Shown here one piece after another: positions 10,245 to 52,173 of a stretch of DNA of 64,000 nt (position 1 is its first letter; each line of letters starts with the position of its first letter). Location: NCBI GenBank assembly GCA_016198905.1, contig JACQHR010000011.1, positions 7,427 to 71,426 on the forward strand, given 5' to 3'. The translations under genes and the position numbers were made by a program. A model generated the notes under the pieces. It had not been told where the DNA came from. It did no database searches and saw only the letters and a list, made by a program, of their open reading frames with translations. The stretch comes from Candidatus Omnitrophota bacterium. GTDB taxonomy: Bacteria > Omnitrophota > Gorgyraeia > Aquiviventales > Aquiviventaceae.

Positions 10245-10257
10245 GCGGGTCCTTCTC

Positions 10258-11733: not shown

Positions 11734-11743
11734 TGGACCTCCT

Positions 11744-12382: not shown

Positions 12383-12391
12383 CCTACCCTC

Positions 12392-13021: not shown

Positions 13022-13027
13022 GGCCTA

Positions 13028-13417: not shown

Positions 13418-13458
13418 CCTCCTCTCTCAGTGTCCGCCTTATCGTGTTCGCCGTCGCA

Positions 13459-13794: not shown

Positions 13795-13820
13795 TGTTAC
13801 GCCCCTCGGCGCTCCTTCGC

Positions 13821-14695: not shown

Positions 14696-14707
14696 GGCGA
14701 TTGCTCG

Positions 14708-15178: not shown

Positions 15179-15183
15179 GACGA

Positions 15184-15576: not shown

Positions 15577-15647
15577 CTTCCCTTCCTCCTTAATTAGACC
15601 GTCGTGGTCTACGGCTGCAGTATCCCTTCGTGGTGCTCCTGCGTGAT

Positions 15648-18600: not shown

Positions 18601-19064
18601 ACGCCCTCCGGCAAACGAGGGATGATCTTGCTCAGGTACTCCAGCGTCCGCGAGCGGGCCCAGTAGATGTCGGTCCCATCCTTGAAGATCACATAGACGT
18701 AGGAGAAGCCGAAGTCCGAGAAGCCCCGGATGGCCTTGACGCGCGGAGCCCCCAGCATCGCGGTGACGATTGGGTAGGTGACCTGGTCTTCGATGATGTC
18801 CGGGCTGCGATCCCAGCGAGAGTAGATAATGACCTGGGTATCCGACAAGTCGGGAATGGCATCCAAGGGAATGCTCTTGAGCGTCCAGATCGCGGCGATC
18901 ATCGCCACGACGACGAAGGTCAGCACGAGGAACTTGTTATGCGCGGAGAACTCAATGAGCTTTTCGATCACCCCACCCGTGCGCAAGGTCGGGGACTGGC
19001 CGCTCTCAGTCCCACCGACCTCGGGACGAACAGGTTCACTGGCCGCCATGTTGGTGCCCTCCAC
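15648..19064 (-). CDS. cusA: CusA/CzcA-family heavy-metal efflux RND permease
   Basis: 1138 aa with 12-TM RND architecture and typical HME-RND segments (AIPDLSDTQVII, GVGWVFQY, DGAIVEVEN). Confidence 0.95.
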   Translation of the reverse strand: MEGTNMAASEPVRPEVGGTESGQSPTLRTGGVIEKLIEFSAHNKFLVLTFVVVAMIAAIWTLKSIPLDAIPDLSDTQVIIYSRWDRSPDIIEDQVTYPIVTAMLGAPRVKAIRGFSDFGFSYVYVIFKDGTDIYWARSRTLEYLSKIIPRLPEGVRTELGPDATGVGWVFQYALVDTSGKHNLQELRSYQDWYLRYYLQSVPGVAEVASIGGFVKQYQVTIDPNRLLAYNIPLTKVVDAIRMGNQEVGGRLLEFSGAEYMVRGRGYLKSVEDIEKIVVATDQKGTPILVKHIGTVALGPDLRRGLADFDGQGDVVGGTVIMRSGENALNVINRVKAKLKDIEPSLPPGVKVEITYDRSELILEAIKNLKEKLIEEMIIVSIVILIFLWHFPSAIIPIVTIPISVILSFIPLYGMRLTSNIMSLSGMAISIGVLVDGAIVEVENAYKRLEQWIEGGRKGDYHAIRLKALKEVGPSVFFSLLVIAVAFMPIFTLVDQEGRLFKPLAWAKNLAMAIAAILAVTLDPAMRMLFTRMEPITLKARWIPERLRGMASKAATTVAVGTYYPEEKHPVSKVLFRIYEPACRFVLKHRKATLLTALGLVLTTVPIYLRLGSEFMPPLREGSLLYMPTTLPGISVTEAQALLQKQDQVLKSFPEVERVFGKSGRMESSTDPAPFSMMETVVLLKPEREWRQVKRWYSWLPDFLEGPFRPFWPCHISYEQLIDEMDRSLKIVGVTNAWTMPIKNRIDMLTTGVRTPIGIKIFGADLKKIEELGTHLEMILKNVPGTRSIYAERVAGGYFVDFDLNRDELARYGLSVAEVQMVIMSAIGGENITTTIEGRERYPVNVRYSREFRDDIEKLKRVLVPTPAGQHIPLVQLADIRLVSGPAMIRNENGLLAGYVYVDMAGRDIGSYVTEAKQIVAKELKLPPGYALTWSGQYENMIRVKERMKVVLPLTIFIICVLLYMNTKSMVKTAIVLLAVPFSLIGAVWLLWLLGYNISIAVWVGMIALMGLDAETGVFMLLFLDLSYHDAVEKGRMRTEQDLEEAIVHGAVKRVRPKMMTVMAAFMGLLPIMWSTGAGADMMKRVAAPMVGGLFSSFILELLVYPTIYAIWKWKFEMKEGQADWVLKHHAGTLASSNS

Positions 19065-20427
19065 CCGTCATCCCTTCTAAGGCGGCTTTGAGGCGGCTCT
19101 CGGAGTCGATCAGGAAGTTGCCGCTGGTGACGACGAGCTCCCCCTCGGACACGCCGCTCTTGATCTCATAGTAGCCCTCCGCCTTGACCCCAACGGTGAC
19201 ATCACGCGGCTCAAAAAGCCCCTGGCCTTTATCGACGAAGATGACCTGCTTTGTCCCCGTGTCGAACACGGCCTCTTCGGGAACTGCGAGCACCTCGCCC
19301 GCGGCGACGGCGATGGAGGCGTTCACGAACATCTCCGGCTTCAGGATATTCTCAGGATCGGTCAGGATAGCCCGCACGCGGGCTGATCGCGTCGCAGGAT
19401 CCAGCACCGGGTCGATCGAGCGGATCGTGCCTGCCAAGGTCTTGCCGGGAATGGCTTGGATTTCGATCGTGATGATCTGGCCGACGTTGACTAGCGGCAA
19501 TTCATACTCGTAGATCGGCGCATAGAGCCACACCCGACCATTCGGATCGGCCAGCAACAAGCTCTGGTCAGGCCCGGTCCAACCGGCCATCTCATCGATC
19601 AGCTCATTGCTTAACCCCAATCGACGCAGCCGAAAACGGCTGGAGTCAACCAGCCGCTGCGCCCGCTCAGTCACCTCCGGCATGGTGCCGGTCTTGGCTT
19701 GTTCCAACGCTTTCAGAGCCTGAAGGTATTCCTGCTCGGCCTGATACAGCTCCGGATCGTTCGCGATCTGTCCGACCGTTCGGATGATCTTGTTGATCGT
19801 CCGACGCTGCACTGGTGCTGTGGTGACACCGATGAACTGTCGCTTTTGGGACGTAACCAGGATTGGCGCGTACCCTTCAGGTGCAGTGGCTGAAACCTCA
19901 CCAGAGACTCCGTTTTCCTCGTAGACCGGAATCAGATCCATCCCCATCGGCGATTTGCCCGGCTTGTCCGACTTGTAGCCCGGAAGCATCGGATCGGTCC
20001 AGTAGAGGATTGTCTTCTCTTCCCCGGCGGGCGAGACGGAGGAGCTGACCGCAGCCTCCGCCACATGGGTTCCACAGATTGGGCAGACGACCTTTTCCCC
20101 CGCTTTGGCCATGACGAGCATGGGACATTTTTGTCCCGGCTTCATCATCGGGCAATTGTGCATGTAGCAAATATCTTTCGCCGTCTTTGCCGTGTGCTGT
20201 GTGCTTAGTGCCGTGTGCTGTGTGCTTTCTTTCTTGACCAACTTCATGTTGCAGATCGGACAGTCCCCGGGACGATCCGCGGTATAGGTGGGGTGCATCG
20301 GACAATAGTAGACGACCTGTTGGTGCGCGCCGGGACGGACCCGAGAGACGACTCCCACCACAGCCACGCCAAGGAGGCTGGCAATGATCAAGCCTCCAAT
20401 GAGTTGAGGGTTCTTGACGCGCATCAT
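19036..20427 (-). CDS. cusB: Efflux RND periplasmic adaptor (CusB-like) with N-terminal CPMHP..CPIC metal-binding modules
   Basis: 463 aa with YYCPMHPTY..CPICNMKL and CPMLV..CPICGTHV, plus a membrane-fusion-protein core. Contains an in-frame heptamer-repeat insertion (STQHTALSTQHTAKTAK). Confidence 0.9.
   Translation of the reverse strand: MMRVKNPQLIGGLIIASLLGVAVVGVVSRVRPGAHQQVVYYCPMHPTYTADRPGDCPICNMKLVKKESTQHTALSTQHTAKTAKDICYMHNCPMMKPGQKCPMLVMAKAGEKVVCPICGTHVAEAAVSSSVSPAGEEKTILYWTDPMLPGYKSDKPGKSPMGMDLIPVYEENGVSGEVSATAPEGYAPILVTSQKRQFIGVTTAPVQRRTINKIIRTVGQIANDPELYQAEQEYLQALKALEQAKTGTMPEVTERAQRLVDSSRFRLRRLGLSNELIDEMAGWTGPDQSLLLADPNGRVWLYAPIYEYELPLVNVGQIITIEIQAIPGKTLAGTIRSIDPVLDPATRSARVRAILTDPENILKPEMFVNASIAVAAGEVLAVPEEAVFDTGTKQVIFVDKGQGLFEPRDVTVGVKAEGYYEIKSGVSEGELVVTSGNFLIDSESRLKAALEGMTGGGHQHGGQ
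20189..20230. repeat. Two tandem 21-nt units built of GCTGTGT-type heptamers, inside cusB
   Basis: GCCGTGTGCTGTGTGCTTAGT followed by GCCGTGTGCTGTGTGCTTTCT. Confidence 0.9.
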
Positions 20428-21767
20428 CAGCTGCCTCCTGTAAGTTTCAAATCCGTTCCAACCGCCCGTTCGAGCGCTGCGAAACTTTTCAGCGCCTCGG
20501 CCAGCGCCTGATAGTAGGCGACTTGGGCGTTGAGGTAGACTCGTTCGCTATCGATGAGATTCAATACATCCATGCGGCCAGCCTCGTAGCCGGCCTGATC
20601 CGAGCGAAACGCCAGCTCCGCTTCAGGGATCAGGGCATTTTGGTAGACCTCCACCACCTGCTTGGCGGCGGTGAAGCGATAGTAGGCGTCCTTGACTTCA
20701 TACGCTGTGAAGTTCTCGGCCTGTTTGAGCTTGGCTTGGCTGGCGTTGAGATTTCGCTTCGCCTCCAGCACGCTGGGGATCAGGCGGTTTTGCCAGATGG
20801 GCAGGGTGATCTTCAACGGCACCATCCAGGCGTCGCGGCCATCATTGGGCTCGGTCGTCATGCCGGCGCCAATTTGGGTGTACTGGAATCCCACGGTAAG
20901 GTCCGGCACATACTCCAACTTGGCCAGGGTGTTGGCGTGCTGCTTCCGCTTCACCATCGCCGAGGCCTCGCCAAGTTCCGGGCGGCGCTTCTGAGCCGTC
21001 GCCAGGAGCTCTTCAAGCGTCGAGGACAGCGTAGACAACTCGGGTTGCTCCGCGTGTCCCACCGGCGTATGGGGATGACGGTCGAGCAGCGCGTTGAGCA
21101 GGGCGGCCGCCGTCTGACGCTGCTGGCGCAGCACCAACAACCGCTGCAGCACGTCCGAGACTTCAGCCTGGGCCTTGGCCACATCCCGCTGCGATCCGCC
21201 TTGCGCCGCGTACCGGGATTGGGCGATGCCTTCAAATCGTTTCAGCACTTCGTTGATCTCCTCCACGGCTTGCACCACGGCGTCGGTGGCATAAAGGTTA
21301 TAGTACGTGTCGGAAACCTTCAGGATGACGTCGCGCTCTGTGGCGTGGAGTTGGGCCTGAGCCGCTTGCGCCTCAGCCGCCGCCATGCGGTGCTTTTCCC
21401 AGAGCTTGCCGGGAAACGGCACCATCTGTTCGGCCTCATAGACGTTCATCTGGGGCCCGAGGCGGGTTTCCAAATCCGGTCCCATAATGGCGTAGCCAAC
21501 GCTCGGATCCGGAAGCGCCGAGGCTTGCGGGATGCGCAGCTTCGCGGCCCGCCACTGCTCCTTGGCCGCCTTGAGTTCCGGATTTCTCTCGAGCGCCTCG
21601 GTGATGACCTCTGCGAGACGAAGCTCCTCTGCCGGCTGCTCCTTCGCCGCTGCGTTAGGCGGCGACGCCATCTGGAGGACGAGCGCAGCCGTCAACAGAT
21701 CAATTCCTCGCATCCACGACCTCCTTGTTCCAAGACCTTCTCGGATCACGCGCTGACGCACGTGCAC
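20427..21767 (-). CDS. cusC: TolC-family outer-membrane efflux protein (CusC-like)
   Basis: 446 aa with a two-repeat OEP helical pattern. The stop overlaps the cusB start. The true start may be MRGIDLL (21713). Confidence 0.85.
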   Translation of the reverse strand: MHVRQRVIREGLGTRRSWMRGIDLLTAALVLQMASPPNAAAKEQPAEELRLAEVITEALERNPELKAAKEQWRAAKLRIPQASALPDPSVGYAIMGPDLETRLGPQMNVYEAEQMVPFPGKLWEKHRMAAAEAQAAQAQLHATERDVILKVSDTYYNLYATDAVVQAVEEINEVLKRFEGIAQSRYAAQGGSQRDVAKAQAEVSDVLQRLLVLRQQRQTAAALLNALLDRHPHTPVGHAEQPELSTLSSTLEELLATAQKRRPELGEASAMVKRKQHANTLAKLEYVPDLTVGFQYTQIGAGMTTEPNDGRDAWMVPLKITLPIWQNRLIPSVLEAKRNLNASQAKLKQAENFTAYEVKDAYYRFTAAKQVVEVYQNALIPEAELAFRSDQAGYEAGRMDVLNLIDSERVYLNAQVAYYQALAEALKSFAALERAVGTDLKLTGGS

Positions 21768-21819
21768 CTATCCTCGACATAGTGTATCAACATCCATGCG
21801 CCGAGGATAGCGACCGATA

Positions 21820-21872
21820 GATCAGTGTGGCAGGGCCTGCCGCTGCGCGTCACCCGCCACACTGACCATGCC
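21820..21872 (-). repeat. Dispersed repeat copy A, in the cusC leader
   Basis: The minus strand GGCATGGTCAGTGTGGCGGGTGACGCGCAGCGGCAGGCCCTGCCACACTGATC matches 47482-47512 plus 47598-47625 on the plus strand. Confidence 0.8.
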
Positions 21873-22000
21873 CCATCACTCAATTCCATCTGGACGGGAC
21901 ACGAGCCGCCCGCTGACAAATGCCACACCAACGCGTGGGCGGTGGGTCAGGGAGACAACCGCACACGAGACGGCTGCTCCCCAACCCTGCCGCTATCCGC

Positions 22001-22432
22001 TTACTGGGTTTTCTGCACGCTCGAGATCGCGATGAGGCGCTGCCCGTCGAGCTCCATCACTGTCCCGCGCACACTGACTATCTGCCCCGCGAACTCAGCT
22101 AGTTGCTGATTCGCCGGATTGTGGTCATTCATGGTCGCCAAGTAGAGTTGGTTGCCAACCTTGATGGCGACGGGTAAACCGCTCTTGATGCACTTCTTAG
22201 CGCAGCTTGCGTGCTTGGGCCCAATGCCCTCTGCCGGATGGCTGAGGTAGCAGAACACATCCGTGACTTCTCCAGTCAGTGTCTGCTCTTGCGGCGACCC
22301 TGTCATCGCCTGTTGCCCCGTGGCACCCATACCGTGATCATGGCCTCCATGCTCATGTTCGCTCTCGGCCAAGGCTGACGTTGCCCCAATCAACAACACC
22401 ATCCCGATAATTCCCTGCACTACGTGTTTCAT
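22001..22432 (-). CDS. Periplasmic His-rich, three-Cys protein (paralog B) upstream of cusC
   Basis: MKHVVQG start, signal peptide, SEHEHGGHDHGMG, then GEVTDVFCY..GPKHASCAKKCIKSGLP. Colinear with 15184..15576. Confidence 0.6.
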   Translation of the reverse strand: MKHVVQGIIGMVLLIGATSALAESEHEHGGHDHGMGATGQQAMTGSPQEQTLTGEVTDVFCYLSHPAEGIGPKHASCAKKCIKSGLPVAIKVGNQLYLATMNDHNPANQQLAEFAGQIVSVRGTVMELDGQRLIAISSVQKTQ

Positions 22433-22489
22433 TTCACTTCTCCTTATGAGTTGGGCCAGTGAGGCCCACGCGATACAGCAACACTAATG

Positions 22490-22501
22490 ATACCCCGGTA
22501 T
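22490..22501 (-). promoter_or_regulatory. Short CsoR-like palindrome ATACCCCGGTAT
   Basis: 5-bp arms ATACC/GGTAT, about 60 nt upstream of the paralog-B start (22432). Confidence 0.35.
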
Positions 22502-22537
22502 GGAGAAACACGCTGTCATCAAAACCTAAGGGTTTGA

Positions 22538-22954
22538 TTAGGAGAAACAATGAGGAGGCGCGTGGTTCGCGAACGTTGTCCGGTAGAACGGACGCGCTGG
22601 GATTGGTTCGTGTGCCGGAGGACTGAGGTTGTTGGGAATTGCGGAAAGGTCGATGAATCCCACGAGAGGGATTGCCTGCAGCGACATGGCCTGACGCAGC
22701 AGCGGCGACCCGCGAGCCAGGAGGAGCGTGAACTGTGGGATGACCACCGCATGCAGGGTGCTGCAGCAGGAATCGTTCGCTCGGGAGGGAGACTCGTCGT
22801 GATGATCTACGGGAGCATGCTGGTGAGTGTCGTTCACGTGCGCGTGGCCGCCACTGAAAGCCTCATAGGCGCAGTAGTTCGTCGCCATCAACAAGGCTCC
22901 GCCCACGATCCATGCGCTCAGGCGTATCGAGCATTCCATCAGGCGTTTTACCAT
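22538..22954 (-). CDS. Hypothetical His/Cys-containing membrane-anchored protein
   Basis: Start chosen at MVKRLMECS (22954) to avoid overlapping csoR. One TM helix, then GGHAHVNDTHQHAPVDHHDE and a CC pair. I recognise no family. Confidence 0.4.
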   Translation of the reverse strand: MVKRLMECSIRLSAWIVGGALLMATNYCAYEAFSGGHAHVNDTHQHAPVDHHDESPSRANDSCCSTLHAVVIPQFTLLLARGSPLLRQAMSLQAIPLVGFIDLSAIPNNLSPPAHEPIPARPFYRTTFANHAPPHCFS

Positions 22955-22979
22955 GACGCTCTTCCCTTTAGATGTCAGC

Positions 22980-23249
22980 CTATTTGACAAAGCGGTGGAT
23001 TGTTTGCATCAGTTCGGTGATCTTTGCTTTGCTCTCGCGTTTGCGGATCGCTTCGCTAACGCAGCCGTTGATGTGCCCATTCATGACTTTCAGCGAGACC
23101 TGGTCGAGCGCTTTGCGGGCCGCGGTGAGCTGCTGGATGATCTCGATGCAGTAGCGGCGCTGCTCGACCATGCGCGTGATGCCGCGCACCTGGCCTTCGA
23201 TGCGGCGCAGCCGTGGCAAGAGGTTATCGTGTTTCGGATATTCAGCCAT
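22980..23249 (-). CDS. csoR: CsoR-family copper-sensing transcriptional repressor
   Basis: An 89-aa product from ATG 23249 (MAEYPKHDNLLPRLRRIEGQVRGI..). C-H-C ligand pattern (RRYC ... GHINGC). The track start at 23339 (TTG) runs through a repeat hairpin. Confidence 0.85.
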   Translation of the reverse strand: MAEYPKHDNLLPRLRRIEGQVRGITRMVEQRRYCIEIIQQLTAARKALDQVSLKVMNGHINGCVSEAIRKRESKAKITELMQTIHRFVK

Positions 23250-23256
23250 AGGTTGG

Positions 23257-23290
23257 TACTCACCGGGAGTATACATACTCCCCCGTAGTA
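23257..23290 (-). promoter_or_regulatory. Two adjacent CsoR-type operator candidates
   Basis: TACTCACCGGGAGTA (23257-23271) and TACTCCCCCGTAGTA (23276-23290). Both have TAC..GTA arms around a G/C core and lie 8-41 nt upstream of the csoR start. Confidence 0.5.
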
Positions 23291-23305
23291 TGTCAAGTGC
23301 TATAA

Positions 23306-23397
23306 CAGCACAAAGCACTAAGCACACAGCACAAAGCAACTGCGTTCTGTGAAGATCCCACGACCCGCTTTATGCTTTGTGCTGTTTGCTGTGTGCT
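23306..23397. repeat. Heptamer-built inverted repeat (hairpin) between the DUF423 stop and the csoR promoter
   Basis: Left arm CAGCACAAAGCACTAAGCACACAGCACAAAGC, right arm TGCTTTGTGCTGTTTGCTGTGTGCT, loop of about 32 nt. Confidence 0.85.
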
Positions 23398-23399: not shown

Positions 23400-23762
23400 T
23401 CAGGGTTTTGCGGAGAGGGCGAGGAGGAGCCAGCCGATGAGCAACGCGAGGCCGCCGAAGGGGGTGATGATGCCGAGTTTCTTGATGCCGGTGACGGAGA
23501 GCAGATAGAGGCTGCCGGAAAAGAGGAGGATCCCGAGGACGAATGCGACGCCGGCGTTGCGAATCAACGGCTCCGAGGGCTTCAGTGTTGCCAGCCAGCC
23601 GACAGCCAGCAGCGCCAGGCCGTGAATGAGATGGTAGAAGACAGCCGTGTGGTAGATCTGCTTTCCTTCCGGCGTCAGCGTGTCCTTGAGCCCGTGCGCG
23701 CCAAAGGCGCCCAGGGCGACGCCCAGCAACATCACCAAACTACCGTAGCGTATCCAGATCAT
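23400..23762 (-). CDS. DUF423 membrane protein
   Basis: 120 aa, 4 TM helices, LGAFGAHGL and HGLALL motifs. Confidence 0.75.
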   Translation of the reverse strand: MIWIRYGSLVMLLGVALGAFGAHGLKDTLTPEGKQIYHTAVFYHLIHGLALLAVGWLATLKPSEPLIRNAGVAFVLGILLFSGSLYLLSVTGIKKLGIITPFGGLALLIGWLLLALSAKP

Positions 23763-28274: not shown

Positions 28275-28357
28275 TGTGTGCTACTCCTCTCGTGAGAAGA
28301 AACGATGAATGAGCGAGTCCAGCGCTAAGCACAAAGCACAAAGTAAAAACTGGTCTT

Positions 28358-30295: not shown

Positions 30296-30613
30296 TTAGG
30301 TGACGATGGCCAGAATATCGTCCTCGTTAAGGAAGACGTATTCCTTATCGTCGACCTTGATCTCGTTGCCTGAGTACTTGCCGAAGATGATCTTGTCGCC
30401 GGCCTTCACCGCCAACGGGACCACCTTGCCGTTCTTCAAGAGACGGCCGGAGCCCACCGCAATTACTTTGCCTTCTTGCGGCTTCTCCTGCGCGGAATCG
30501 GGAAGGTAGAGCCCGCCTCTGCTCTTTTCAGCGGATCCCAACCGTTGGGCGATCACCCGATCACCGATCGGCTTGAGTTTCAACGAACTCGCTGTTGCTG
30601 TTGCAGTCGCCAT
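30296..30613 (-). CDS. groES: Co-chaperonin GroES, second copy located downstream of groEL
   Basis: 105 aa: [69 protein letters not shown]. Confidence 0.85.
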   Translation of the reverse strand: MATATATASSLKLKPIGDRVIAQRLGSAEKSRGGLYLPDSAQEKPQEGKVIAVGSGRLLKNGKVVPLAVKAGDKIIFGKYSGNEIKVDDKEYVFLNEDDILAIVT

Positions 30614-30651
30614 TTGCGATCTCCTTCAACTCGGAACCCGGAACCGGTTTC

Positions 30652-32310
<1,659 letters not shown>

Positions 32311-32601
32311 TTACGATTGCACAACGGCGAGGATGTCGTCTTCTTTGAGGATGAGATAGTCCTCGCCCTCGACCGACACCTCGGTTCCCGAATACTTCCC
32401 GTATAACACGCGGTCGCCGTTCTTGATCTCGAGGGACTTCACCGTCCCATCATCAAGAAGGCGACCCGTTCCGATCGCAAGCACCTTTCCCTCTTGCGGC
32501 TTTTCCTTCGCGGAATCTGGCAAGACCAGTCCGCTCTTCGTTTTTCCCTGCGCATCGAGGGGTCTGACCACGATGCGATCTGCCAATGGTTTCAGCGCCA
32601 T
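32311..32601 (-). CDS. groES: Co-chaperonin GroES, first copy
   Basis: ATG at 32601 with AGGAGG upstream gives [29 protein letters not shown]. The track start (TTG 32679) runs through the CIRCE element. Confidence 0.95.
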
Positions 32602-32615
32602 GCGCCATCCTCCTG

Positions 32616-32642
32616 TTAGCAATCCACATTTCTGAGTGCTAA
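32616..32642 (-). promoter_or_regulatory. CIRCE operator (HrcA binding site)
   Basis: TTAGCAATC-N9-GAGTGCTAA against the consensus TTAGCACTC-N9-GAGTGCTAA. It lies 15 nt upstream of the groES start. Confidence 0.85.
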
Positions 32643-32751
32643 TTTGAGTTGATTGTAACAGCTCCGAAAGGCATTTCAAGGGTGAAAAACGAGATATTTA
32701 TTGATCTTGTGGCCTGATTATATCAGATAGATGAGTAAGACGCACTATATC

Positions 32752-33648
32752 TTATGATTTAAATGATTTCTTGCTCTGAGGCGGTTTTGGAAGAAGGCTC
32801 AGATGGTAGAGGCCTTCAAGGACAAGGTGGGGTTTGAGCACATCGATGGTCTTGGAATGCTTGACAATCAGCGGGCTGGCTCCGCCGGTGGCAACGACCT
32901 TGGCGTTTGGGGCATATTGCCTCTTCAGTTGGGTCACCAATCCATCGCAGAGCGCCACACAACCAAAGAGCACGCCGGAGCGGATGCTGTTGGCGGTGTC
33001 GCGGCCCAGCAGCTCGGGCGGCTCGCGCAGCTCAACTTTCGGCAAGAGCGCGGTGCGGCTGGCGAGCGCTTCGAGCGAGATATCCAGGCCGGGCGCGATG
33101 ACGCCGCCGAGGTATTCTCCACCCCGCCCCTTGCTCCCGGTTTGGCGGGGGCCAGCTTTCACGATATCAATGGTGATGGCAGTGCCAAAATCGGCGACGA
33201 TGCAATCCTGCCCGCGCCCCCTGCCCCCTGCCCCCTGCCCCTGAGGAGCGCCGAATTCCTTCCATGCAGCGTAAGCTCCAACCAGGCGGTCTTGCCCCAC
33301 CTGCTCCGGATATGCGTAGCGGTTCTTGAGCGGGACGAACACATCTTGGCCGACAATGCGAATGGGAACGGCCTTCAATGAATGTAGAGCCTCGGTCAGC
33401 ACCGAGGCCATGCGCGGCACGACGCTGCAGAGGACGATCTGCTTGGCTTTCGTGAGATGCAGCCGTCGGCTCGTGGCCAGCGCTTTCAGTTGAAGGGTGA
33501 CTTCATCCGGCGTGCGCCAGGGTTGTGTCGCGATGGAAAACTGCGATCTTAGCCGCGCGCCCTCCCCGGCCCGTCCATCACGAGAGCCGGGGCGGGCAAA
33601 GACGCCAAAGCTCGTCGTCGTGTTCCCGATATCAATCGCGATCATCAT
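32752..33648 (-). CDS. coaX: Type III pantothenate kinase
   Basis: MMIAIDIGNTTTSFGVF start and VADFGTAITID. Carries a repeat-encoded insertion PQGQGAGGRGRGQD. Confidence 0.9.
   Translation of the reverse strand: MMIAIDIGNTTTSFGVFARPGSRDGRAGEGARLRSQFSIATQPWRTPDEVTLQLKALATSRRLHLTKAKQIVLCSVVPRMASVLTEALHSLKAVPIRIVGQDVFVPLKNRYAYPEQVGQDRLVGAYAAWKEFGAPQGQGAGGRGRGQDCIVADFGTAITIDIVKAGPRQTGSKGRGGEYLGGVIAPGLDISLEALASRTALLPKVELREPPELLGRDTANSIRSGVLFGCVALCDGLVTQLKRQYAPNAKVVATGGASPLIVKHSKTIDVLKPHLVLEGLYHLSLLPKPPQSKKSFKS
33209..33243. repeat. (GCCCCCT)n heptamer array inside coaX
   Basis: TGCCCGCGCCCCCTGCCCCCTGCCCCCTGCCCCTG. The coding strand is G-rich. Confidence 0.9.
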
Positions 33649-33692: not shown

Positions 33693-34523
33693 TCACCGCA
33701 ACAAGGTCACTTCGCCCATGTCGAAGGCGCGCTGGACGCCGGAGTCAAGACGGACGACGAGCCGGCCTTGCTCATCGAGATCGCTGGCGGTGCCTTCGAA
33801 GCGGCTGGAGCCGGCGGCGATGTGCACGACCTGGCCGAAGAGCCCCATGAACGGTCGCAGCGCTTCACGGATCGGGGCGAATCCTTGCGATGACCAGACA
33901 TCGTACCACGTCTGAAACTGGCGGCACAACGCCGCCGTCAGCTCATACGAGTCTGCGTGCATGGCTCCCGCGGCTTTGAGCGATGTCGCGTGCTCAGGCA
34001 AATCGAGCGGATCGGTGGTGACGTTGAGGCCGACGCCGATGATGACGTAGCTCTGTGTGCTGTGTGCTTGGTGCTGTGTGCTAAAGGGTATTGCGGCTTC
34101 CACCAAAATCCCGCATACCTTTTTACCATCGATGAGGACGTCATTCGGCCAGCGGATCGTGGCAAACAACCCCGCAGATTGTTGAATCGTCTGCACCGCC
34201 GCGAGCCCGGCCACGAGCGACAGCTGCGGGATTTCGGTAGCGGTATGCAGGGGCCAGAGAATCAGCGAGAAGTACGCACCGCCTGCGGGCGACTCCCACA
34301 CGCGGCCAAGCCGGCCACGTCCCTGCTCCTGGCGCTGGGCCCACACGAGTGTCCCGTGCGGCGCGCGTTGTTGGGCCAGCTCATGCGCGACTTCCATCGT
34401 CGAGCCGACGGACGAAAACGCGTACAGCGAGCGGCCCATGGCGGTGCCCTCGAGGTGCTGGCGCAGCCGGGCTTCAAGCGCGCAATCGCGTGCGACTGGG
34501 GCGGCGGCGCTGGGTTGGCTCAT
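33693..34523 (-). CDS. birA: Biotin--[acetyl-CoA-carboxylase] ligase
   Basis: GRGRLGRVWESPAGG (GRGRxGRxW) motif. The start may be internal, since the track start overlaps uvrB by 50 nt. Contains an in-frame heptamer segment STQHQAHSTQS. Confidence 0.85.
   Translation of the reverse strand: MSQPSAAAPVARDCALEARLRQHLEGTAMGRSLYAFSSVGSTMEVAHELAQQRAPHGTLVWAQRQEQGRGRLGRVWESPAGGAYFSLILWPLHTATEIPQLSLVAGLAAVQTIQQSAGLFATIRWPNDVLIDGKKVCGILVEAAIPFSTQHQAHSTQSYVIIGVGLNVTTDPLDLPEHATSLKAAGAMHADSYELTAALCRQFQTWYDVWSSQGFAPIREALRPFMGLFGQVVHIAAGSSRFEGTASDLDEQGRLVVRLDSGVQRAFDMGEVTLLR
34053..34082. repeat. GCTGTGT-type heptamer array inside birA
   Basis: CTGTGTGCTGTGTGCTTGGTGCTGTGTGCT. Confidence 0.9.
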
Positions 34524-36546: not shown

Positions 36547-37431
36547 TCATTGGATCACTCGCAGCGACATATCCAACGAGGTCGCAGAGTGGGTGAGGCG
36601 GCCGATGGAGATGCGATCGACGCCGGTCTTGGCGATGGCGCGGACGTTGGCCAGCGTCACGCCGCCGGAAACTTCCAGCAAGACAGACCGGAGACCGGAG
36701 ACCGGAGACCGGACCGCCGCCCGAATTTCTTTAAGTGACATGTTGTCTAAGAGAATCGCGTCAGGTCGTGCATGGAGTGCCACTTGGAACTCACGGAGGT
36801 TTGTCACTTCGATTTCCACAGACCGCCTTGGTCTGACACGTTTGGCTGTTGCGACGAGCAGGGGGACGAGGCTTTCACTGTGTGCTGTGTGCTGTGTGCT
36901 GTGTGCTCTCAGGTGGTTCGTCTTGATCAAGATCGCCTCGGCCAGATCGCTGCGATGACTGGAGCCCCCGCCGGCGCGGACCGCGCACTTTTCTAGCGCA
37001 CGCAATCCGGGGGTCGTTTTCCTGGTGTCGAAAATTTTCGCGCGCGTGCCACGGACTCGCTGCACATAGGCCTGTGTCAGTGTGGCGATGCCGGAAAGAT
37101 GTCCAAGGAAATTGAGTGCGACCCGTTCGGCAGCGAAGATCGAGCGCGCTCGTCCCTCGATGGTGAGAATGGGCGTGCCAGGAGAAATCTTGGCACCGGA
37201 ACGCACGTGCAGCCGGCAGCGCAATGATGGATCCAGGGTCTTGAACGTCAGCATCGCCATCTTCACGCCGGCGGCGATACCGGACGACTTCGCGATGATG
37301 CGAGCCGTAATGCGCTGATTTGCCGGGATGATGGCGCGCGAGGTGACGTCGTGGCGGGCGCGATCCTCTGCGAGGGCGTGGCGAATGATCGGCAGCACTG
37401 CGCGGGCGGTCACGTCAGCCATTGCGCTCAC
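36547..37431 (-). CDS. nadC: Nicotinate-nucleotide diphosphorylase (carboxylating)
   Basis: 294 aa with ILIKTNH and LLEVSGGVTL..ISIGRLTHS. Carries two repeat-encoded segments (AHSTQHTAHS; VRSPVSGLRS). Confidence 0.9.
   Translation of the reverse strand: MSAMADVTARAVLPIIRHALAEDRARHDVTSRAIIPANQRITARIIAKSSGIAAGVKMAMLTFKTLDPSLRCRLHVRSGAKISPGTPILTIEGRARSIFAAERVALNFLGHLSGIATLTQAYVQRVRGTRAKIFDTRKTTPGLRALEKCAVRAGGGSSHRSDLAEAILIKTNHLRAHSTQHTAHSESLVPLLVATAKRVRPRRSVEIEVTNLREFQVALHARPDAILLDNMSLKEIRAAVRSPVSGLRSVLLEVSGGVTLANVRAIAKTGVDRISIGRLTHSATSLDMSLRVIQ
36685..36712. repeat. (AGACCGG)x4 heptamer array inside nadC
   Basis: Four perfect tandem AGACCGG units. Confidence 0.95.
36878..36907. repeat. (CTGTGTG)x4 heptamer array inside nadC
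   Basis: CTGTGTGCTGTGTGCTGTGTGCTGTGTGCT. Confidence 0.95.
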
Positions 37432-40307
37432 ATGGCTTGCAGAACAGCGAGGTGCTCGGCGGTTTTCTTGAGCGTCTCTTCGAGCTGAGTCTTGCGATCG
37501 CGGGCTCCCTGAACGACCTCTGCCGGAGCCTTCTCGGTGAAGTGGCGATCCTTGAGGCGCGCTTCAGCCTGCTGCAAATGCTTCGTGAGCTCCTCCACCT
37601 GCTGTTGCTTGCGCGCGCGTTCTTTGTCAACATCGATCAGGCCGGCCAGCGGCAGGATGACTTCGATGCCATCGACGACCGCTGAAGCGGCGTCCTTGGG
37701 CTTCTGCGCCTTCGCGGCTACATGCACCTCACCCACGCCCGCCAGCGTCTTGAGCAGCGACTGCTGCGACTCGAAAAAGCTGCGCAGCGCGGCGTGCTGC
37801 GTGATCAGATGCACCGGCGGTTTGCGATCAGGCGGGACGTTCAATTCCGCGCGCGTCGTACGGATCGCTCCCACCACCGCGGTGAAACGTTCAAACTGCG
37901 ATTCCGCTTCATCATCAATGAGTTTTTTGTCTGGTTTTGGCCAAGCCGCCTTCATGATCGACACGGCTTTGTCAGTGTGCTGTGTGCTGTGTGCTGTGTG
38001 CTGGAGCTGTTGCCAGAGCTCTTCGGTGACAAACGGCATCACCGGATGCAGCAATCGTAGGCCCGTCTCCAACACATGGACAAGAATAGCTTTGGTGGTT
38101 TCTTGTTGCTTGGTGCTTGGTGCTTGGTGCTGAAGTTGGACTTTTGCGATCTCCAGATACCAGTCGCAGAAATCGTGCCAGAGAAAATCGTACAACGCGG
38201 TGGCCGCCTCATTAAAGAGGCACGCATCCAGCGACTTCGTCACGGCCATCACGGTATGCTGCAGCCGCGAGAGAATCCATCGATCGGGTACAGTGATGGC
38301 AGCGGGTCCTGCCGCCTGCGAGACCCCGCCGTCCGTCCTCGCCCGGCGACTATCGCGCCGGCTCTCCGGGCGGGCGGCAGGGGCCTCCCCTCCGGCGTCA
38401 CCCGCTGCAAGCACGAAGCGCGTCGCGTTCCAGAGTTTGTTGGCGAAGTTGCGGCCGGCGGTAAAACGCTCTTCCGAAAGAAAGATATCCTGCCCGATCG
38501 CCGTGGAGGTGATCAGCGTATAGCGCAACGCATCCGTACCGTACTGCTTGATAATGTCCAGCGGATCAATGATATTGCCGAGCGACTTGGACATCTTCTT
38601 GCCGGTGATGTCGCGCACGGTGCCATGGATGTAGACGTTGGAAAACGGCAAGTCCTTCATGCAGAAGTAGCCGGCCATGACCATGCGCGCGACCCAGAAG
38701 AAGATGATCTCTTGCGCGGTCACCAGCGTATCCGTTGGATAGAAATAGTCGAGGTCTTTGGTCTTATTCGGCCATCCCAGCGTCGAGAATGGCCATAACC
38801 ACGAGGAGAACCACGTATCCAGCACATCTTCATCTTGCTTGAGGTCAACGTTTCCACATTGAGGACACGTTGCGGGTTTCGATTTCGAAACGATTACACC
38901 GAGCTCTGGGGCGTGGGGCGCGGGGCGTGGGGCATGGGTTGGGATCTTCCCCTGCCCCCTGTCTCCCGCCCCTTGCCCCTGACTACAGTTATTGCAGTAC
39001 CAGACCGGCAAACGATGGCCCCACCAGATTTGGCGGCTGATGCACCAGTCCTCGATGTTCTCCATCCAATTCAAGTACACCTTGGTCCAACGCTCGGGCG
39101 AAAACTTCAACTTCCCTTTCTTCACCGCTTCGATGGCCGGCTTGGCCAACGGCTTCATCTTCACGAACCATTGCGGACTCAAGCGCGGTTCAACGACGGT
39201 ATGACATCGATAGCAATGACCGACGTTGTGCTGATGCTCATCGATCGCCCCAAGAAATCCTTGCTGCTCCAAGTCGACGATCAACTTGCTGCGGCAGTCG
39301 AGCCGATCCAAGCCCTCATACGCCTTCGGCACGTTGGTCATGTGCGCGTCATCGGTCATCACGTTGATAAACTCCAACCCGTGTTTCTTTCCGAGTTGGA
39401 AGTCGACCGGATCGTGCGCCGGCGTCACTTTGACCGCTCCGGTGCCGAATGCTTTATCGACTTGCTCATCGGCAATGATGGAAATCTTCCGATTCACGAG
39501 CGGCAGGATCGCGTGCTTGCCGATCAACGCCTTATAGCGCTTGTCTTTCGGATGGACGGCAATCGCGGTGTCGCCGAGCATCGTCTCGGGCCTCGTCGTG
39601 GCAACTTCAATAAAGTCAGGGGCGTGGGGCGTGAGGCGTGGGGCGTGGGACTTCTTTTTCCCCTGCCCCCCGTCCCCTGCCCCCTGCCCCTCAATCGGAT
39701 AGCGAATATGATACAGCTTGCCTTGCGTGTCCTTGCGCGGCGCTTCTTCATCGGCGAGTGCGGTTTGACAGCGCGGGCACCAGTTGATGATGTAGTTGCC
39801 GCGATAAATGAGCCCGTCGTTGTAGAGTCGGATAAAGACGTCGAGCACCGCTTCGGAAAGCCCTTCATCCATCGTGAAGCGCGTCCGGCGCCAGTCACAC
39901 GAGGAGCCAAGCCGCTTGAGCTGATACAAAATCGTATTGCCGTACTGCTCCTTCCATTGCCACACGCGCTGGATGAACGCGTCGCGCCCTAAGTCCTGGC
40001 GCGTCTTCCCTTCCTTGGCCAGGGCGCGCTCGACGACGTTTTGCGTGGCGATGCCGGCGTGGTCAGTTCCGGGAACCCACAACGCATTGAAGCCCTGCAT
40101 GCGCTTCCAGCGAATCAGGATGTCCTGAATCGTATTGTTGAGCGCATGGCCCATGTGCAGGATGCCCGTGATATTGGGCGGCGGGATCACGATCGTGTAG
40201 GGCTTGCGTGTGGGATCGACGTCGGCCTGGAACAGGCCCTGAGCCTCCCACCATTGATAGCGGGATTCTTCGACAGTCTGTGGATTGTACTGCGAAGGCA
40301 ACTCCAT
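37428..40307 (-). CDS. valS: Valine--tRNA ligase
   Basis: 959 aa with HMGHALN (HIGH), KMSKSLGN (KMSKS), ATTRPETMLGDTA and a C-terminal coiled coil. Four repeat-derived in-frame insertions. Confidence 0.97.
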   Translation of the reverse strand: MELPSQYNPQTVEESRYQWWEAQGLFQADVDPTRKPYTIVIPPPNITGILHMGHALNNTIQDILIRWKRMQGFNALWVPGTDHAGIATQNVVERALAKEGKTRQDLGRDAFIQRVWQWKEQYGNTILYQLKRLGSSCDWRRTRFTMDEGLSEAVLDVFIRLYNDGLIYRGNYIINWCPRCQTALADEEAPRKDTQGKLYHIRYPIEGQGAGDGGQGKKKSHAPRLTPHAPDFIEVATTRPETMLGDTAIAVHPKDKRYKALIGKHAILPLVNRKISIIADEQVDKAFGTGAVKVTPAHDPVDFQLGKKHGLEFINVMTDDAHMTNVPKAYEGLDRLDCRSKLIVDLEQQGFLGAIDEHQHNVGHCYRCHTVVEPRLSPQWFVKMKPLAKPAIEAVKKGKLKFSPERWTKVYLNWMENIEDWCISRQIWWGHRLPVWYCNNCSQGQGAGDRGQGKIPTHAPRPAPHAPELGVIVSKSKPATCPQCGNVDLKQDEDVLDTWFSSWLWPFSTLGWPNKTKDLDYFYPTDTLVTAQEIIFFWVARMVMAGYFCMKDLPFSNVYIHGTVRDITGKKMSKSLGNIIDPLDIIKQYGTDALRYTLITSTAIGQDIFLSEERFTAGRNFANKLWNATRFVLAAGDAGGEAPAARPESRRDSRRARTDGGVSQAAGPAAITVPDRWILSRLQHTVMAVTKSLDACLFNEAATALYDFLWHDFCDWYLEIAKVQLQHQAPSTKQQETTKAILVHVLETGLRLLHPVMPFVTEELWQQLQHTAHSTQHTDKAVSIMKAAWPKPDKKLIDDEAESQFERFTAVVGAIRTTRAELNVPPDRKPPVHLITQHAALRSFFESQQSLLKTLAGVGEVHVAAKAQKPKDAASAVVDGIEVILPLAGLIDVDKERARKQQQVEELTKHLQQAEARLKDRHFTEKAPAEVVQGARDRKTQLEETLKKTAEHLAVLQAM
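37975..38002. repeat. (GTGTGCT)x4 heptamer array inside valS
   Basis: GTGTGCTGTGTGCTGTGTGCTGTGTGCT. Confidence 0.95.
38103..38132. repeat. (TGGTGCT)-type heptamer array inside valS
   Basis: TTGTTGCTTGGTGCTTGGTGCTTGGTGCTG. Confidence 0.9.
38907..38978. repeat. 72-nt G-arm/C-arm heptamer hairpin module 1 inside valS
   Basis: GGGGCGT GGGGCGC GGGGCGT GGGGCAT .. loop .. CCCCTGCCCCCTGTCTCCCGCCCCTTGCCC. Encodes GQGAGDRGQGKIPTHAPRPAPHAP. Confidence 0.9.
39618..39689. repeat. 72-nt G-arm/C-arm heptamer hairpin module 2 inside valS
   Basis: AGGGGCGTGGGGCGTGAGGCGTGGGGCGTGGGA .. CTTCTTTTT .. CCCCTGCCCCCCGTCCCCTGCCCCCTGCCC. Encodes GQGAGDGGQGKKKSHAPRLTPHAP. Confidence 0.9.
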
Positions 40308-40314: not shown

Positions 40315-40404
40315 TAGCACAAAGCAGAAAGCACAAAGCACAATGAACGGGTCATGCTGGTTGTTTGCGTTTTCTGTGTGCTGTGTGCTGTGTGCTGTGT
40401 GCTT
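40315..40404. repeat. Heptamer-built inverted repeat spanning the cimA stop codon, 8 nt upstream of the valS start
   Basis: Left arm TAGCACAAAGCAGAAAGCACAAAGCACA, right arm TCTGTGTGCTGTGTGCTGTGTGCTGTGTGCTT. The cimA stop at 40352-40354 lies in the loop. Confidence 0.9.
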
Positions 40405-41956
40405 GATCTTTGAGCAGTTTATACTCGATAGAATCGACGAGCGCTTGCCAGCTCGCCTCGATCACGTTTTCCGAGACGCCGATGGTATCCCATGAGTCCT
40501 GCTCATCCTGCGATTGGATGAGCACGCGCACCTTGGCCGCGGTGCCGGCTTTTTCATCCAGCACGCGCACCTTGAAGTCGCGCAGGTGCATGTGCGCCAG
40601 CGTCGGATAAAACTGGCGCAGCGCTTTGCGGATGGCGTTATCCAGCGCGTTGACCGGCCCATCGCCTTCGGCCGCGGTTTGCTCGGTCACCTGACCGACC
40701 TTGATTTTAATCGTGGCCTCGGAGGTGAGTTTGTGGTCGCGCTTCTCCATGATGACGCGGAAGCCTTCGAGCTTGAAGAATGGTTTTAGGTGTTCGATCT
40801 CGCGCTTGAGCAGCAACTCCAGTGAACCTTGCGCCGCTTCGAAGTGATAGCCCTGATGCTCGAGTTTCTGTAAGAGCTTGAGCAGCTTCTTCGCCTCCGG
40901 CGTTTCCTTCGAAAGGTCCAGCGCCAATCCCTGCGCTTTCAAGACAAGCGCGGAGCGGCCCGAGAGTTCGGAGACCAGGATCTTGCGCTGGTTGCCGACG
41001 ACGGCCGGATCGATGTGCTCGTAGGTGCGCGGATTCTTCATGACCGCGTTGACATGCACGCCGCCTTTGTGCGCAAAAGCCGATGAGCCGACAAACGGTT
41101 GGTTCGCCACCTGGGCGAGGTTGCTCACCTCAGCGACGAAACGCGACGTCTCGGTGAGTTCTTTGAGTCGTCCGGCAGGCAGCACGTCAAGACCCATCTT
41201 GGTCGAAAAGATGCCGGCCAGCGAGACGAGATTGGCGTTGCCGCAGCGCTCCCCGTAGCCATTCATCACGCCCTGCACCTGCTGACAGCCGGCGTGCACC
41301 GCCGCCAGCGCATTGGCGACGGCCAGCTCGCTGTCGTTGTGTGAGTGGATCCCCAACTGCACCGAGAGCGTGCCTTTCAGCTTGCTGATGATGTCGTATA
41401 CCTCATGCGGCAGGCTGCCGCCGTTGGTGTCGCAAAAGATGATGGCATCAGCACCTCCGGCGAGCGAGGCCTCCAGCGCTTTCACCGCGTAGGCCGAGTT
41501 GTCCTTGTAGCCGTCGAAGAAATGCTCGGCATCATACATGACCATCCGTCCGCGGCGCTTGAGGTACGCCACAGACTCTTCGATCATCTTGAGGTTCTCT
41601 TCGGGGGTGACGCGCAGCACTTCGCGGACATGCAGGTCCCAAGTCTTGCCGAAGATCGTGATGACCGGGGTTTCCGCGCGTAGGAGCGCATTGAGATTGG
41701 CGTCTTTGGCGGCACTGCCCGCGTGGCGCGTGCTGCCGAACGCTACGAGCTTGGCGTTCGTCAGACGCAGCGTCTTCGCGCGACGAAAATACTCCGCATC
41801 TTTGGGGTTGGAACCGGGCCAGCCGCCTTCAATATAGGGCAGCCCGAGGGCGTCGAGCTTCTCGGTGATGCGCAGCTTGTCCGGCACCGAGTAGGAGATG
41901 CCCTCGGCCTGGGCGCCGTCGCGCAACGTGGTGTCGTACAGTTCAACGTGAGACAT
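40352..41956 (-). CDS. cimA: (R)-citramalate synthase / 2-isopropylmalate synthase family
   Basis: Start MSHVELYDTTLRDGAQ at 41956. HMGL-like barrel plus a LeuA-dimer-type C-terminus. The last ~17 codons (..AHSTQHTAHRKRKQPA) are heptamer repeat. Confidence 0.85.
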   Translation of the reverse strand: MSHVELYDTTLRDGAQAEGISYSVPDKLRITEKLDALGLPYIEGGWPGSNPKDAEYFRRAKTLRLTNAKLVAFGSTRHAGSAAKDANLNALLRAETPVITIFGKTWDLHVREVLRVTPEENLKMIEESVAYLKRRGRMVMYDAEHFFDGYKDNSAYAVKALEASLAGGADAIIFCDTNGGSLPHEVYDIISKLKGTLSVQLGIHSHNDSELAVANALAAVHAGCQQVQGVMNGYGERCGNANLVSLAGIFSTKMGLDVLPAGRLKELTETSRFVAEVSNLAQVANQPFVGSSAFAHKGGVHVNAVMKNPRTYEHIDPAVVGNQRKILVSELSGRSALVLKAQGLALDLSKETPEAKKLLKLLQKLEHQGYHFEAAQGSLELLLKREIEHLKPFFKLEGFRVIMEKRDHKLTSEATIKIKVGQVTEQTAAEGDGPVNALDNAIRKALRQFYPTLAHMHLRDFKVRVLDEKAGTAAKVRVLIQSQDEQDSWDTIGVSENVIEASWQALVDSIEYKLLKDQAHSTQHTAHRKRKQPA

Positions 41957-42003
41957 GGTTTGTGAGTGTTGTGTTTGGAGATCCGACCACACAATGGTCG
42001 AAA

Positions 42004-43269
42004 TCAGGCGTGGGCGGCGACGGCAGCTCGCTTCTTGCCGGACATGGCCGCGCGGTTCAATCCAAATGCGCGATGGACCGCCTGAACGGCTCGCTCGGCA
42101 TGCGCTTTGCGGATGACGCACGAAATCTTGATTTCTGACGTGGAAATCATCTCGATGTTGATGCGCTCGCGAGCCATGGCCTCGAACATTTTCGCCGCAA
42201 TCCCCGAATGGCTGCGCATGCCGATGCCGACGATCGAGAGCTTCGCGACCCCTTCATCGGTTGTCACTTCTCCGGCGCCAATGCGATGCGAGACGCTGCG
42301 CGCAACTCGTAGGGTCGCCGGTAAATCGGCCTTCACGACGGTAAACGAGAGGTCGGTGGAGCCTTCGCGGCTGACGTTCTGCACGATCATATCGACGTTG
42401 ATGCCCTTAGCCGCCAGCTCGCGGAAAATCTCGGCGGCCATGCCCGGCTTGTCCGGCACGTCGCGGATCGTCACCTTCGCTTCGTCGCGCTGCAACGACA
42501 CGCCGCTGACCACGATGTCTTCCATCGCTTTGCCGGTCTTTTGAATCATCGTGCCCTCCCGTAGTGAAAAGCTGGATCGGACATGGATCGGAATGTCGAA
42601 TCGTTTGGCGACGAAGATCGACCGCGCCTGCATGACTTGCGCGCCGAGCGAGGCCATCTCGAGCATTTCATCATAGCTGATGACGCTGAGCTTTCTGGCT
42701 TGCGGCACGATGCGCGGATCGGCGGTATAGACGCCTTCGACGTCGGTGAAAATTTCGCAGACATCCGCGCCCAAGGCCTTCGCCATGGCGACGGCGGTCA
42801 GATCCGATCCTCCGCGCCCCAGCGTCGTGATGTCCTGATTCAAGTTGACGCCTTGAAACCCGGCGACGATGACGATGCGCCGCTTCGCGAGCTCCTTTTC
42901 AATACGCTGCGTGTTGATGTCGACGATGCGCGCCTTCGTGTGCGTGCCGTCGGTGAGGATGCCCACTTGCGCCCCGGTAAAGGAGACGGCGTCTTCCCCC
43001 AGTTGATGGATGGCCATCGCGAGGAGCGCGACAGAAACCTGCTCGCCGGTCGCCATGAGCATGTCCAACTCGCGCTCGGCGGGGTCCTGCGTGATTTGCG
43101 AGGCCAGCTGCAGCAGCTCATCCGTGGTATCGCCAAGCGCAGAAACCACCACGACGACATTGGCACCGGTGCGTTTGGCATCCACCACGCGCTGGGCGAC
43201 CCGCTTGATGCGCTCGGGATTCGCCACGGAGCTGCCGCCGAATTTTTGGACGATCAAGCGGTGGGCCAT
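42004..43269 (-). CDS. lysC: Aspartate kinase
   Basis: MAHRLIVQKFGGSSV start at 43269, two ACT domains. The track alternative start is 43290. Confidence 0.92.
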   Translation of the reverse strand: MAHRLIVQKFGGSSVANPERIKRVAQRVVDAKRTGANVVVVVSALGDTTDELLQLASQITQDPAERELDMLMATGEQVSVALLAMAIHQLGEDAVSFTGAQVGILTDGTHTKARIVDINTQRIEKELAKRRIVIVAGFQGVNLNQDITTLGRGGSDLTAVAMAKALGADVCEIFTDVEGVYTADPRIVPQARKLSVISYDEMLEMASLGAQVMQARSIFVAKRFDIPIHVRSSFSLREGTMIQKTGKAMEDIVVSGVSLQRDEAKVTIRDVPDKPGMAAEIFRELAAKGINVDMIVQNVSREGSTDLSFTVVKADLPATLRVARSVSHRIGAGEVTTDEGVAKLSIVGIGMRSHSGIAAKMFEAMARERINIEMISTSEIKISCVIRKAHAERAVQAVHRAFGLNRAAMSGKKRAAVAAHA

Positions 43270-52017: not shown

Positions 52018-52173
52018 CTATGTGCTTCTCCTCTGATGAATAAAAATGCCGGATTGCTTTTCGGCAACCCGGCGATCCTCAAGGGACCCGTGGCTTTGCG
52101 GCCCTACCTTGCGGTAGGTGTGCCTCCAACCGTTGAAGCGGCTGGGTCCATCGTCGTGCGATGGATTTCTCGT

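Follow-up and report, generated by a model that had tools for sequence, protein, structure and literature searches.

A hairpin between cimA and valS in an Omnitrophota bacterium is one member of a dispersed heptad-repeat family

Is the repeat hairpin that spans the end of cimA and reaches almost to the start of valS a structure made for this gene junction, or one copy of something that occurs elsewhere as well? A first-pass annotation of the window, which is the whole 64,000-nucleotide stretch of DNA analysed here, had proposed that this hairpin and a second one upstream of csoR had been recruited to act between cistrons, as terminators, attenuators, insulators or RNA-processing sites. We found that the flagged hairpin is an ordinary member of a dispersed heptad-repeat family.

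The junction hairpin and its twin

The junction hairpin was recovered where the annotation had placed it. Its inverted arms, 40316-40347 and 40372-40403, are each 32 nt long, 81% complementary and spaced by 24 nt, and TRF called (AGCACAA)x4.0 at 40316-40343 and (CTGTGTG)x4.3 at 40374-40403. The cimA ORF occupies 40352..42121 and valS 37428..40307, both on the minus strand. As had been claimed, the cimA stop codon (40352-40354) lies in the loop between the arms, and 8 nt separate the left arm from the valS ATG. The parts of the junction are as follows.

40374..40403, minus strand: junction arm 1, (AGCACAC)x4+AG on the cimA sense strand, within the cimA ORF, encoding AHSTQHTAH(R)
40344..40373, minus strand: junction spacer (loop), with the last cimA codons RKRKQPA, the stop codon at 40352-40354 and 8 nt of intergenic DNA
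40316..40343, minus strand: junction arm 2, (TTGTGCT)x4 on the sense strand, intergenic, 8 nt upstream of the valS ATG (40305-40307)

The statement that the right arm supplies the last ~17 cimA codons held for about 10 of them (AHSTQHTAH-R); the other ~7 and the stop codon belong to the spacer, which is the counterpart of the short basic tail and stop in orthologues without the hairpin. Complementarity had been put at about 6 of 7 positions per unit. Over the arms it amounts to 81%, and in each unit the mismatch falls on one fixed position of the heptad, as AGCACAC and TTGTGCT show when both are read in sense. The sense-strand stem of the junction was computed at -32.3 kcal/mol, and both the junction hairpin and its twin folded better than 200 of 200 shuffles on either strand (z -3.5 to -5.4).

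Pfam matches fitted the gene names already given, i.e. ValRS, DUF423, CsoR (PF02583) and the cimA product. The last matched HMGL-like and LeuA_dimer and hence belongs to the CimA/LeuA family, in which citramalate and isopropylmalate synthase were not separable. The mechanically called cimA ORF begins at a GTG that precedes the conserved MSHVELYDTTLRDG start (41956) by 55 codons; the ATG of the latter, not the GTG, is probably the true start.

The twin was also found at its expected place, with arms of 31 nt (23307-23337 and 23367-23397) that are 81% complementary and 29 nt apart. In agreement with the annotation, the two hairpins have equivalent structures, and both are copies from a single repeat family.

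23307..23397, minus strand: twin doublet of the same heptamer family as the junction, lying wholly in the intergenic DNA that separates the DUF423 stop (23400-23402) from the csoR promoter
23268..23296, minus strand: csoR promoter, TTGACA-17-TATACT with 11/12 matches, overlapping the C-tract/G-tract palindromic operator

The twin begins 2 nt past the DUF423 stop and ends 11 nt before the csoR promoter. It was compared with four relatives obtained by a DUF423 homologue search (76-87% DUF423 identity). In 4/4 of them the DUF423 stop is followed, 8 to ~330 nt on, by the TTGACA promoter and the CsoR operator, both kept, and there is no heptad hairpin. By sequence comparison the twin is a lineage-specific insertion, so a conserved insulating role is not required for it.

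Heptad arrays in the window and in related loci

A 14-mer search allowing at most 2 mismatches gave 27 occurrences in the window versus 0.33 expected. Raw array calls numbered 19 at period 7, compared with 0-3 across periods 4-12, and only period 7 was enriched. Curation left 16 arrays, 12 of them inside ORFs, at a coding density of 92.5%. The array-bearing ORFs (valS, nadC, birA, coaX, cusB and cimA) all remain open in frame, and the peptide AHSTQHTAH recurs in CimA, ValRS and NadC. The arrays beyond the two hairpins described above include the following.

39619..39690, minus strand: valS doublet at hot spot 1, (GGGGCAG)x4, a 10-nt spacer and (CCCACGC)x4, in frame, encoding GQGAGDGGQGKKKSHAPRLTPHAP
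38907..38979, minus strand: valS doublet at hot spot 2, (GGGGCAG)x4 and (CCCACGC)x4 arms, in frame, encoding GQGAGDRGQGKIPTHAPRPAPHAP
38102..38131, minus strand: valS single array, (AGCACCA)x4, encoding QHQAPSTKQQ
37975..38003, minus strand: valS single array, (AGCACAC)x4, encoding QHTAHSTQHT
36878..36907, minus strand: nadC single array, (AGCACAC)x4+AG, encoding AHSTQHTAH
36685..36713, minus strand: nadC single array, (CCGGTCT)x4 in sense, which is (AGACCGG)x4 on the plus strand
34053..34082, minus strand: birA single array of the AGCACAC family, encoding STQHQAHSTQ, an insertion relative to five orthologues
33207..33241, minus strand: coaX single array, (GGGGCAG)x4-5, encoding QGQGAGGRGRG, an insertion relative to three orthologues
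28321..28349, plus strand: intergenic single array of the AGCACAA family
20188..20227, minus strand: cusB array, AGCACAC family, encoding STQHTALSTQHTA and containing a perfect higher-order repeat of 21 nt (3x7)

The array-coded segments are insertions relative to orthologues and to the ValRS structure 1GAX. Hot spot 1 of valS corresponds to a loop of the editing domain, where T. thermophilus ValRS (1GAX) shows a gap of 22 residues and the closest relative of the window, L001, is insert-free. Likewise, the nadC loop of 36878-36907 carries GQGAG-type arrays in L002 and L005 and is empty in L001. The 21-nt repeat of cusB resembles the product of an in-frame gain of three units, and a step of three is the only slippage tolerable in an ORF.

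Two further observations concern the same genes. At ValRS residues ~640-665 (window ~38300-38400) there is a non-periodic low-complexity insert, GEAPAARPESRRDSRRARTDGG; L001 has an insert at the same position, and this segment may be a decayed array. The (GGGGCAG)x4 arms at 39660-39690, 38949-38979 and 33207-33241 match the canonical G-quadruplex motif on the mRNA-sense strand, with four G-tracts and 3-nt loops.

A homologue search with the DUF423 protein gave a match of 100% identity in a 'Candidatus Omnitrophica bacterium' MAG, and this search and a genome scan placed the window in Candidatus Omnitrophota. A census was then made by CimA-centred scans, which yielded 160 syntenic loci, nearly all from Omnitrophota; the sample covers one locus neighbourhood, 2.08 Mb in total, in metagenome-assembled genomes. 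The 2.08 Mb of related loci contained 217 period-7 runs, 15 of period 8, 4 of period 6 and 0-1 of any other period. Run length at period 7 was unimodal, with a mode of 32 nt (~4.4 units) and almost no runs above 39 nt. The units comprised 124 distinct, mutually unrelated heptamers, among which no shared trinucleotide motif was found. A CAG or RSS-like heptamer motif was considered and rejected, CAG/CTG enrichment being merely 1.23-fold. The most depleted trinucleotide was TAA/TTA, which is what stop-codon avoidance would predict. Of the pairs of neighbouring arrays, 43 were same-family inversions, 4 were direct repeats and 6 fell into neither class.

Long ORFs held 197 of 216 period-7 runs and 89% of the bases, and therefore the arrays do not avoid coding DNA. 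Their sense strand is T-poor (16% T) and, within ORFs, open in frame, so that the encoded peptides are hydrophilic and of low complexity. Only 3 arrays lay in opposite-strand genes. Some Nitrospirota/Thermodesulfovibrionales loci (L068, L073, L075 and L077) bore heptad arrays of equal size; the phenomenon is thus not limited to Omnitrophota.

Gain, loss and copying of the arrays

After the conserved KLLKD, the CimA protein of the window ends in QAHSTQHTAHRKRKQPA, and those of the closest relatives L001 and L002 end in RKSGNGPKKKR and RTKTR, each followed directly by the stop codon. From this comparison, the array adds ~10 residues ahead of an ancestral basic tail, and the earlier suggestion that insertion had remodelled the CimA C-terminus was upheld. 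Both sister genomes have the gene order of the window and no hairpin between cimA and valS.

We surveyed 33 distinct cimA-valS junctions of the high-GC clade. Two clear arrays were present in 10 of them and one clear array in 5, about a dozen were long but degenerate, and 6, including those of L001 and L002, were short and hairpin-free. In the two-array junctions the stop codon lay between the arms in 9 of 10 and at the arm-2 boundary in the tenth, and the distance from arm 2 to the valS ATG was 1-20 nt. The unit varied by species (AGCACAC, CAGAAGG, AGCAGTA, AGCGTAT, AGCAACA, GGAAGCT). Hairpin-free cimA tails were basic, ending in KKKR, RTKTR or RARR before the stop. Because the spacer encodes a basic tail and stop like those of hairpin-free genomes, the junction arms bracket host sequence. 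In L085 and L098 cimA reads through both arms, and in L011 the stop falls within arm 1. No Shine-Dalgarno motif was evident upstream of valS. The cimA stop overlaps or abuts the valS ATG in the low-GC clade, and cimA and valS are tightly coupled across the phylum.

A second type of mini-palindrome, 33 nt long and GC-rich (GCCCGCCCCGG...GGGCGGGCCGGG), was seen nested in junction arm 1 at L086:3252-3284 and at the L092 junction. It is missing in L091, a close relative of L086 (~94% identity over blastn-matched segments).

L001 (91% CimA identity) has 0 period-7 arrays in 13 kb, and its alignment with the window is interrupted at every array checked. Genomes of 87-91% mutual identity differ by the clean presence or absence of arrays (27-39 nt) or of a complete doublet (81 nt). 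Seven such clean array indels between close genomes showed microhomology of 0-2 nt and no target-site duplication. L005 and L008 differ by a single arm, and a few copy-number differences of 12-15 nt were seen between close genomes. A metagenome scan returned no strains of the same species, the best match having 88% CimA identity; a plasmid search with cimA gave no matches.

Array families belong to genomes, not to sites. For 138 of 348 arrays, a same-family copy was found in the own locus more than 200 nt away, compared with 28 +/- 6.6 when the arrays of a random other locus served as control. The two valS hot spots of L002 hold elements that are identical at 73 of 74 positions, spacer included, in unrelated flanks, whereas orthologous copies of the window and L002 are 77-82% identical. 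Hence, whole elements are copied or converted within a genome. Insertion also recurs at the same places: across many of 46 species, six or more loops of ValRS contain inserts that are coded by heptamers and have unrelated sequences, and the same two nadC loops are occupied in the window, L002 and L005.

A third small palindrome occurs as GGGGACTGTCCC copies in low-GC Omnitrophota, at valS hot spot 1 of L013 and at L036:13367-13396 as compared with L144. In two genomes of 99.8% identity it shows indel polymorphism.

Function of the hairpin and origin of the arrays

In our opinion the hairpin is probably one copy of a dispersed, fast-turnover repeat family of ~4.4x7-nt arrays and not a purpose-built terminator. 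The element is an array of ~30 nt, its usual form being an inverted doublet of array, spacer and complementary array, 70-110 nt in total. Arrays and doublets are gained and lost as blocks without target-site duplication, and copies are pasted or converted between sites of one genome. They persist where the host tolerates them, both in the DNA between genes and, in frame, in probable surface loops of housekeeping proteins. At cimA-valS the arms flank the ancestral basic cimA tail and stop, giving a CimA ~10 residues longer and a stem of -32 kcal/mol in the mRNA. The effect on expression is most likely small. Ribosomes ending cimA would melt arm 1 and free arm 2 by the valS start, and cimA-valS translational coupling would be kept rather than transcription terminated.

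By analogy, the arrays might be written or copied by a transposase of the single-strand HUH/RAYT type, or through break repair that uses another copy as template. No transposase, RAYT, reverse transcriptase or candidate mobilising enzyme was found among the 40 of 56 window ORFs that were scanned. The 124 unrelated units with a fixed ~4.4 copies are unlike a classical REP/RAYT or MITE family and call for a process able to build arrays out of arbitrary heptamers. The spacers at cimA-valS, and perhaps at DUF423-csoR, look like host sequence and not element cargo; a simple cut-and-paste hairpin therefore does not account for them. A bolder proposal, possible but doubtful, is that dedicated sequence-indifferent machinery writes and renews ~4.4 copies of any 7-mer, usually as an inverted pair around short host DNA. 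The sites would recur, and loops in essential proteins would be among them. As array-free relatives such as L001 stand beside array-rich genomes, the process is searchable by phylogenetic profiling.

Heptanucleotide tandem repeats have a precedent in the cyanobacterial STRR sequences. The Omnitrophota arrays share the hallmark of this class, about four tandem 7-nt units at many dispersed sites. Predominantly intergenic location, typical of STRR and of the Xanthomonas/Nostoc repeats, is not seen here, 12/16 arrays of the window and 197/216 of the related loci being in ORFs. G-rich heptamer repeats in Xanthomonas and Nostoc are found in excess in non-coding DNA and are depleted in ORFs, and G-quadruplex formation was given as the reason for their four-unit rule (PMC4692102). 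In contrast to STRR and the Xanthomonas/Nostoc repeats, units that are not G-rich follow the four-unit rule too, and array frequency in ORFs equals that elsewhere. In Geobacter metallireducens, Gmet_H4## denotes four tandem heptanucleotides of consensus GGACCGG that occur within and between genes (PMC2700814). The likeness extends to four 7-nt units and intragenic location, and (AGACCGG)x4 of the window (36685-36713) is one base off that consensus. However, the Geobacter repeat was described as a single sequence family and proposed to be a regulatory RNA, and the report contains no inverted doublets, orthologous-site reuse or many unit families (PMC2700814).

REPINs are REP doublets that form hairpins and are mobilised by RAYT transposases (PMC3116915). 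Like them, the Omnitrophota elements are inverted doublets of a ~25-30-nt unit with a spacer (43 inverted versus 4 direct adjacent pairs), also occur as singlets, have no target-site duplication and form genome-specific families. REPs, on the other hand, are extragenic, have no internal periodicity and fall into few conserved families, and two large REP superfamilies have been reported to carry a GTAG or CGTC end tag. Here we found 124 unrelated heptamers with no enriched motif, in copies that are mostly intragenic. The target-site duplication of a MITE is likewise not seen at the seven clean array indels, with their 0-2 nt of microhomology. The palindromic elements of Rickettsia were reportedly described by Ogata et al. 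in 2000 as selfish sequences lying in frame in housekeeping genes and translated as extra surface peptides. They differ in being 100-150 nt long, not tandem-periodic, in few conserved families and restricted to Rickettsia. A literature search found no account of such repeats in Omnitrophota, and no description of heptad arrays as inverted doublets, at equal density in ORFs and elsewhere, reusing orthologous sites, or with more than 100 unit families under one length rule.

Might the repeat nonetheless have given rise here to an RNA or DNA structure that is conserved for a function, for instance one that couples translation by masking valS initiation until cimA has been read? The same junction position in many high-GC species, with arms kept complementary through unrelated units (AGCACAC, CAGAAGG, AGCGTAT, GGAAGCT), could, at the level of sequence, point to function. 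So could the frequency of the arrangement (two clear arrays in 10/33 junctions, one in 5 more, and many others long and degenerate), the stop between the arms in 9/10, arm 2 at 1-20 nt from the valS ATG, and the valS start with no evident Shine-Dalgarno motif. Nevertheless, the junction is occupied no more often than the hot spots inside valS, six junctions are short and lack a hairpin, both arms are read through in L085 and L098, and the stop of L011 is in arm 1. Moreover, the complementarity arrives with the element, with selection not needed. Mismatches between the arms also bear on this point. On the sense strand in ORFs, A.C outnumbers G.U by 69 to 19 (18 to 4 counted by hairpins), and in hairpins not wholly inside an ORF by 17 to 6. 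Selection for an mRNA stem was rejected on these counts, which are the opposite of its prediction: the mRNA-sense stem is not the optimised one, and it is the weaker of the two strands. We consider a functional structure at this junction unlikely.

Co-option of the hairpins as intercistronic terminators, attenuators, insulators or RNA-processing sites fares worse and appears very unlikely. Both stems are stable (z -3.5 to -5.4), both hairpins stand at gene boundaries, one of them just upstream of a strong promoter, and the junction position recurs in many species. Like a Rho-independent terminator, the junction hairpin is a stem-loop near a stop codon. Unlike one, it lacks a U-tract, has a coding 5' arm and recurs inside ORFs: the sense strand runs on as ...GCUAAUCCGCCAUG and ...GCUGUUAUAGCACUUGACA, and a terminator scan of the sense (minus) strand returned nothing at either the junction or the twin. 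A Rho-independent terminator was also rejected on location, since it would be untranslated and here arm 1 is within cimA and sister hairpins are wholly within the essential valS ORF. Hairpins of the same architecture in frame in valS must therefore be transcribed and translated through. Further counter-evidence is that the twin is missing in four relatives with the same promoter and the junction copy in the sister genomes L001 and L002, that A.C mismatches prevail over G.U on the sense strand, and that in most of the phylum cimA either overlaps valS or adjoins it, an arrangement that speaks for co-expression and not insulation. A search of the window with Rfam at the gathering threshold gave no family at the hairpins, only 2 tRNAs and a c-di-GMP-I riboswitch.

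That the arrays are slippage microsatellites, phase-variation contingency loci or protein repeats selected for their peptide is extremely improbable: they are tandem short repeats, cusB has its 21-nt (3-unit) in-frame duplication and close genomes show a few 12-15-nt copy-number differences, but length is capped at ~4.4 units instead of being broadly distributed, period 7 alone is enriched, one unit occurs at many unlinked coding and non-coding sites in both orientations, and the hosts are essential housekeeping genes such as valS, nadC, birA and coaX, whose frames are intact and in which a 7-nt slip would be lethal.

Reading the hairpin as a copy of a dispersed repeat family has consequences for annotation. 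Such hairpins should not be labelled terminators or regulatory RNAs, and the unusual low-complexity segments in Omnitrophota housekeeping proteins should be taken as repeat insertions, not as sequencing errors or functional motifs. A phylum of mostly ultra-small, uncultured bacteria tolerates several selfish insertions per essential gene, with 4-6 in one valS. These insertions turn over fast and reuse the same protein loops, and they provide a natural map of insertion-tolerant sites in conserved enzymes. The strict rule of 7 nt x ~4.4 across more than 100 unrelated units points to a molecular process. If the dedicated machinery were real, it would represent a new class of self-renewing bacterial DNA element and would explain the long-noted excess of four-unit heptanucleotides in Geobacter, Xanthomonas, cyanobacteria and other bacteria.

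Several other features of the window were recorded. A copper/metal island at 3677-23249 codes for a P-type ATPase that carries YHS and HMBD domains, and in it YHS domains are also joined to a PfkB kinase and to a T2SSE ATPase. The island further comprises efflux genes (CusA/CusB/OEP), two proteins of the DUF2231 type, and csoR together with its palindromic C-tract/G-tract operator. On the minus strand, a groES-groEL-groES arrangement lies at 30296-32679, where Cpn10 genes (32311-32679 and 30296-30613) flank Cpn60 (30652-32304). The c-di-GMP-I riboswitch aptamer is at 52060-52134 on the minus strand, upstream of an ORF ending at 52017, and scored 58.9 bits against a gathering score of 35.
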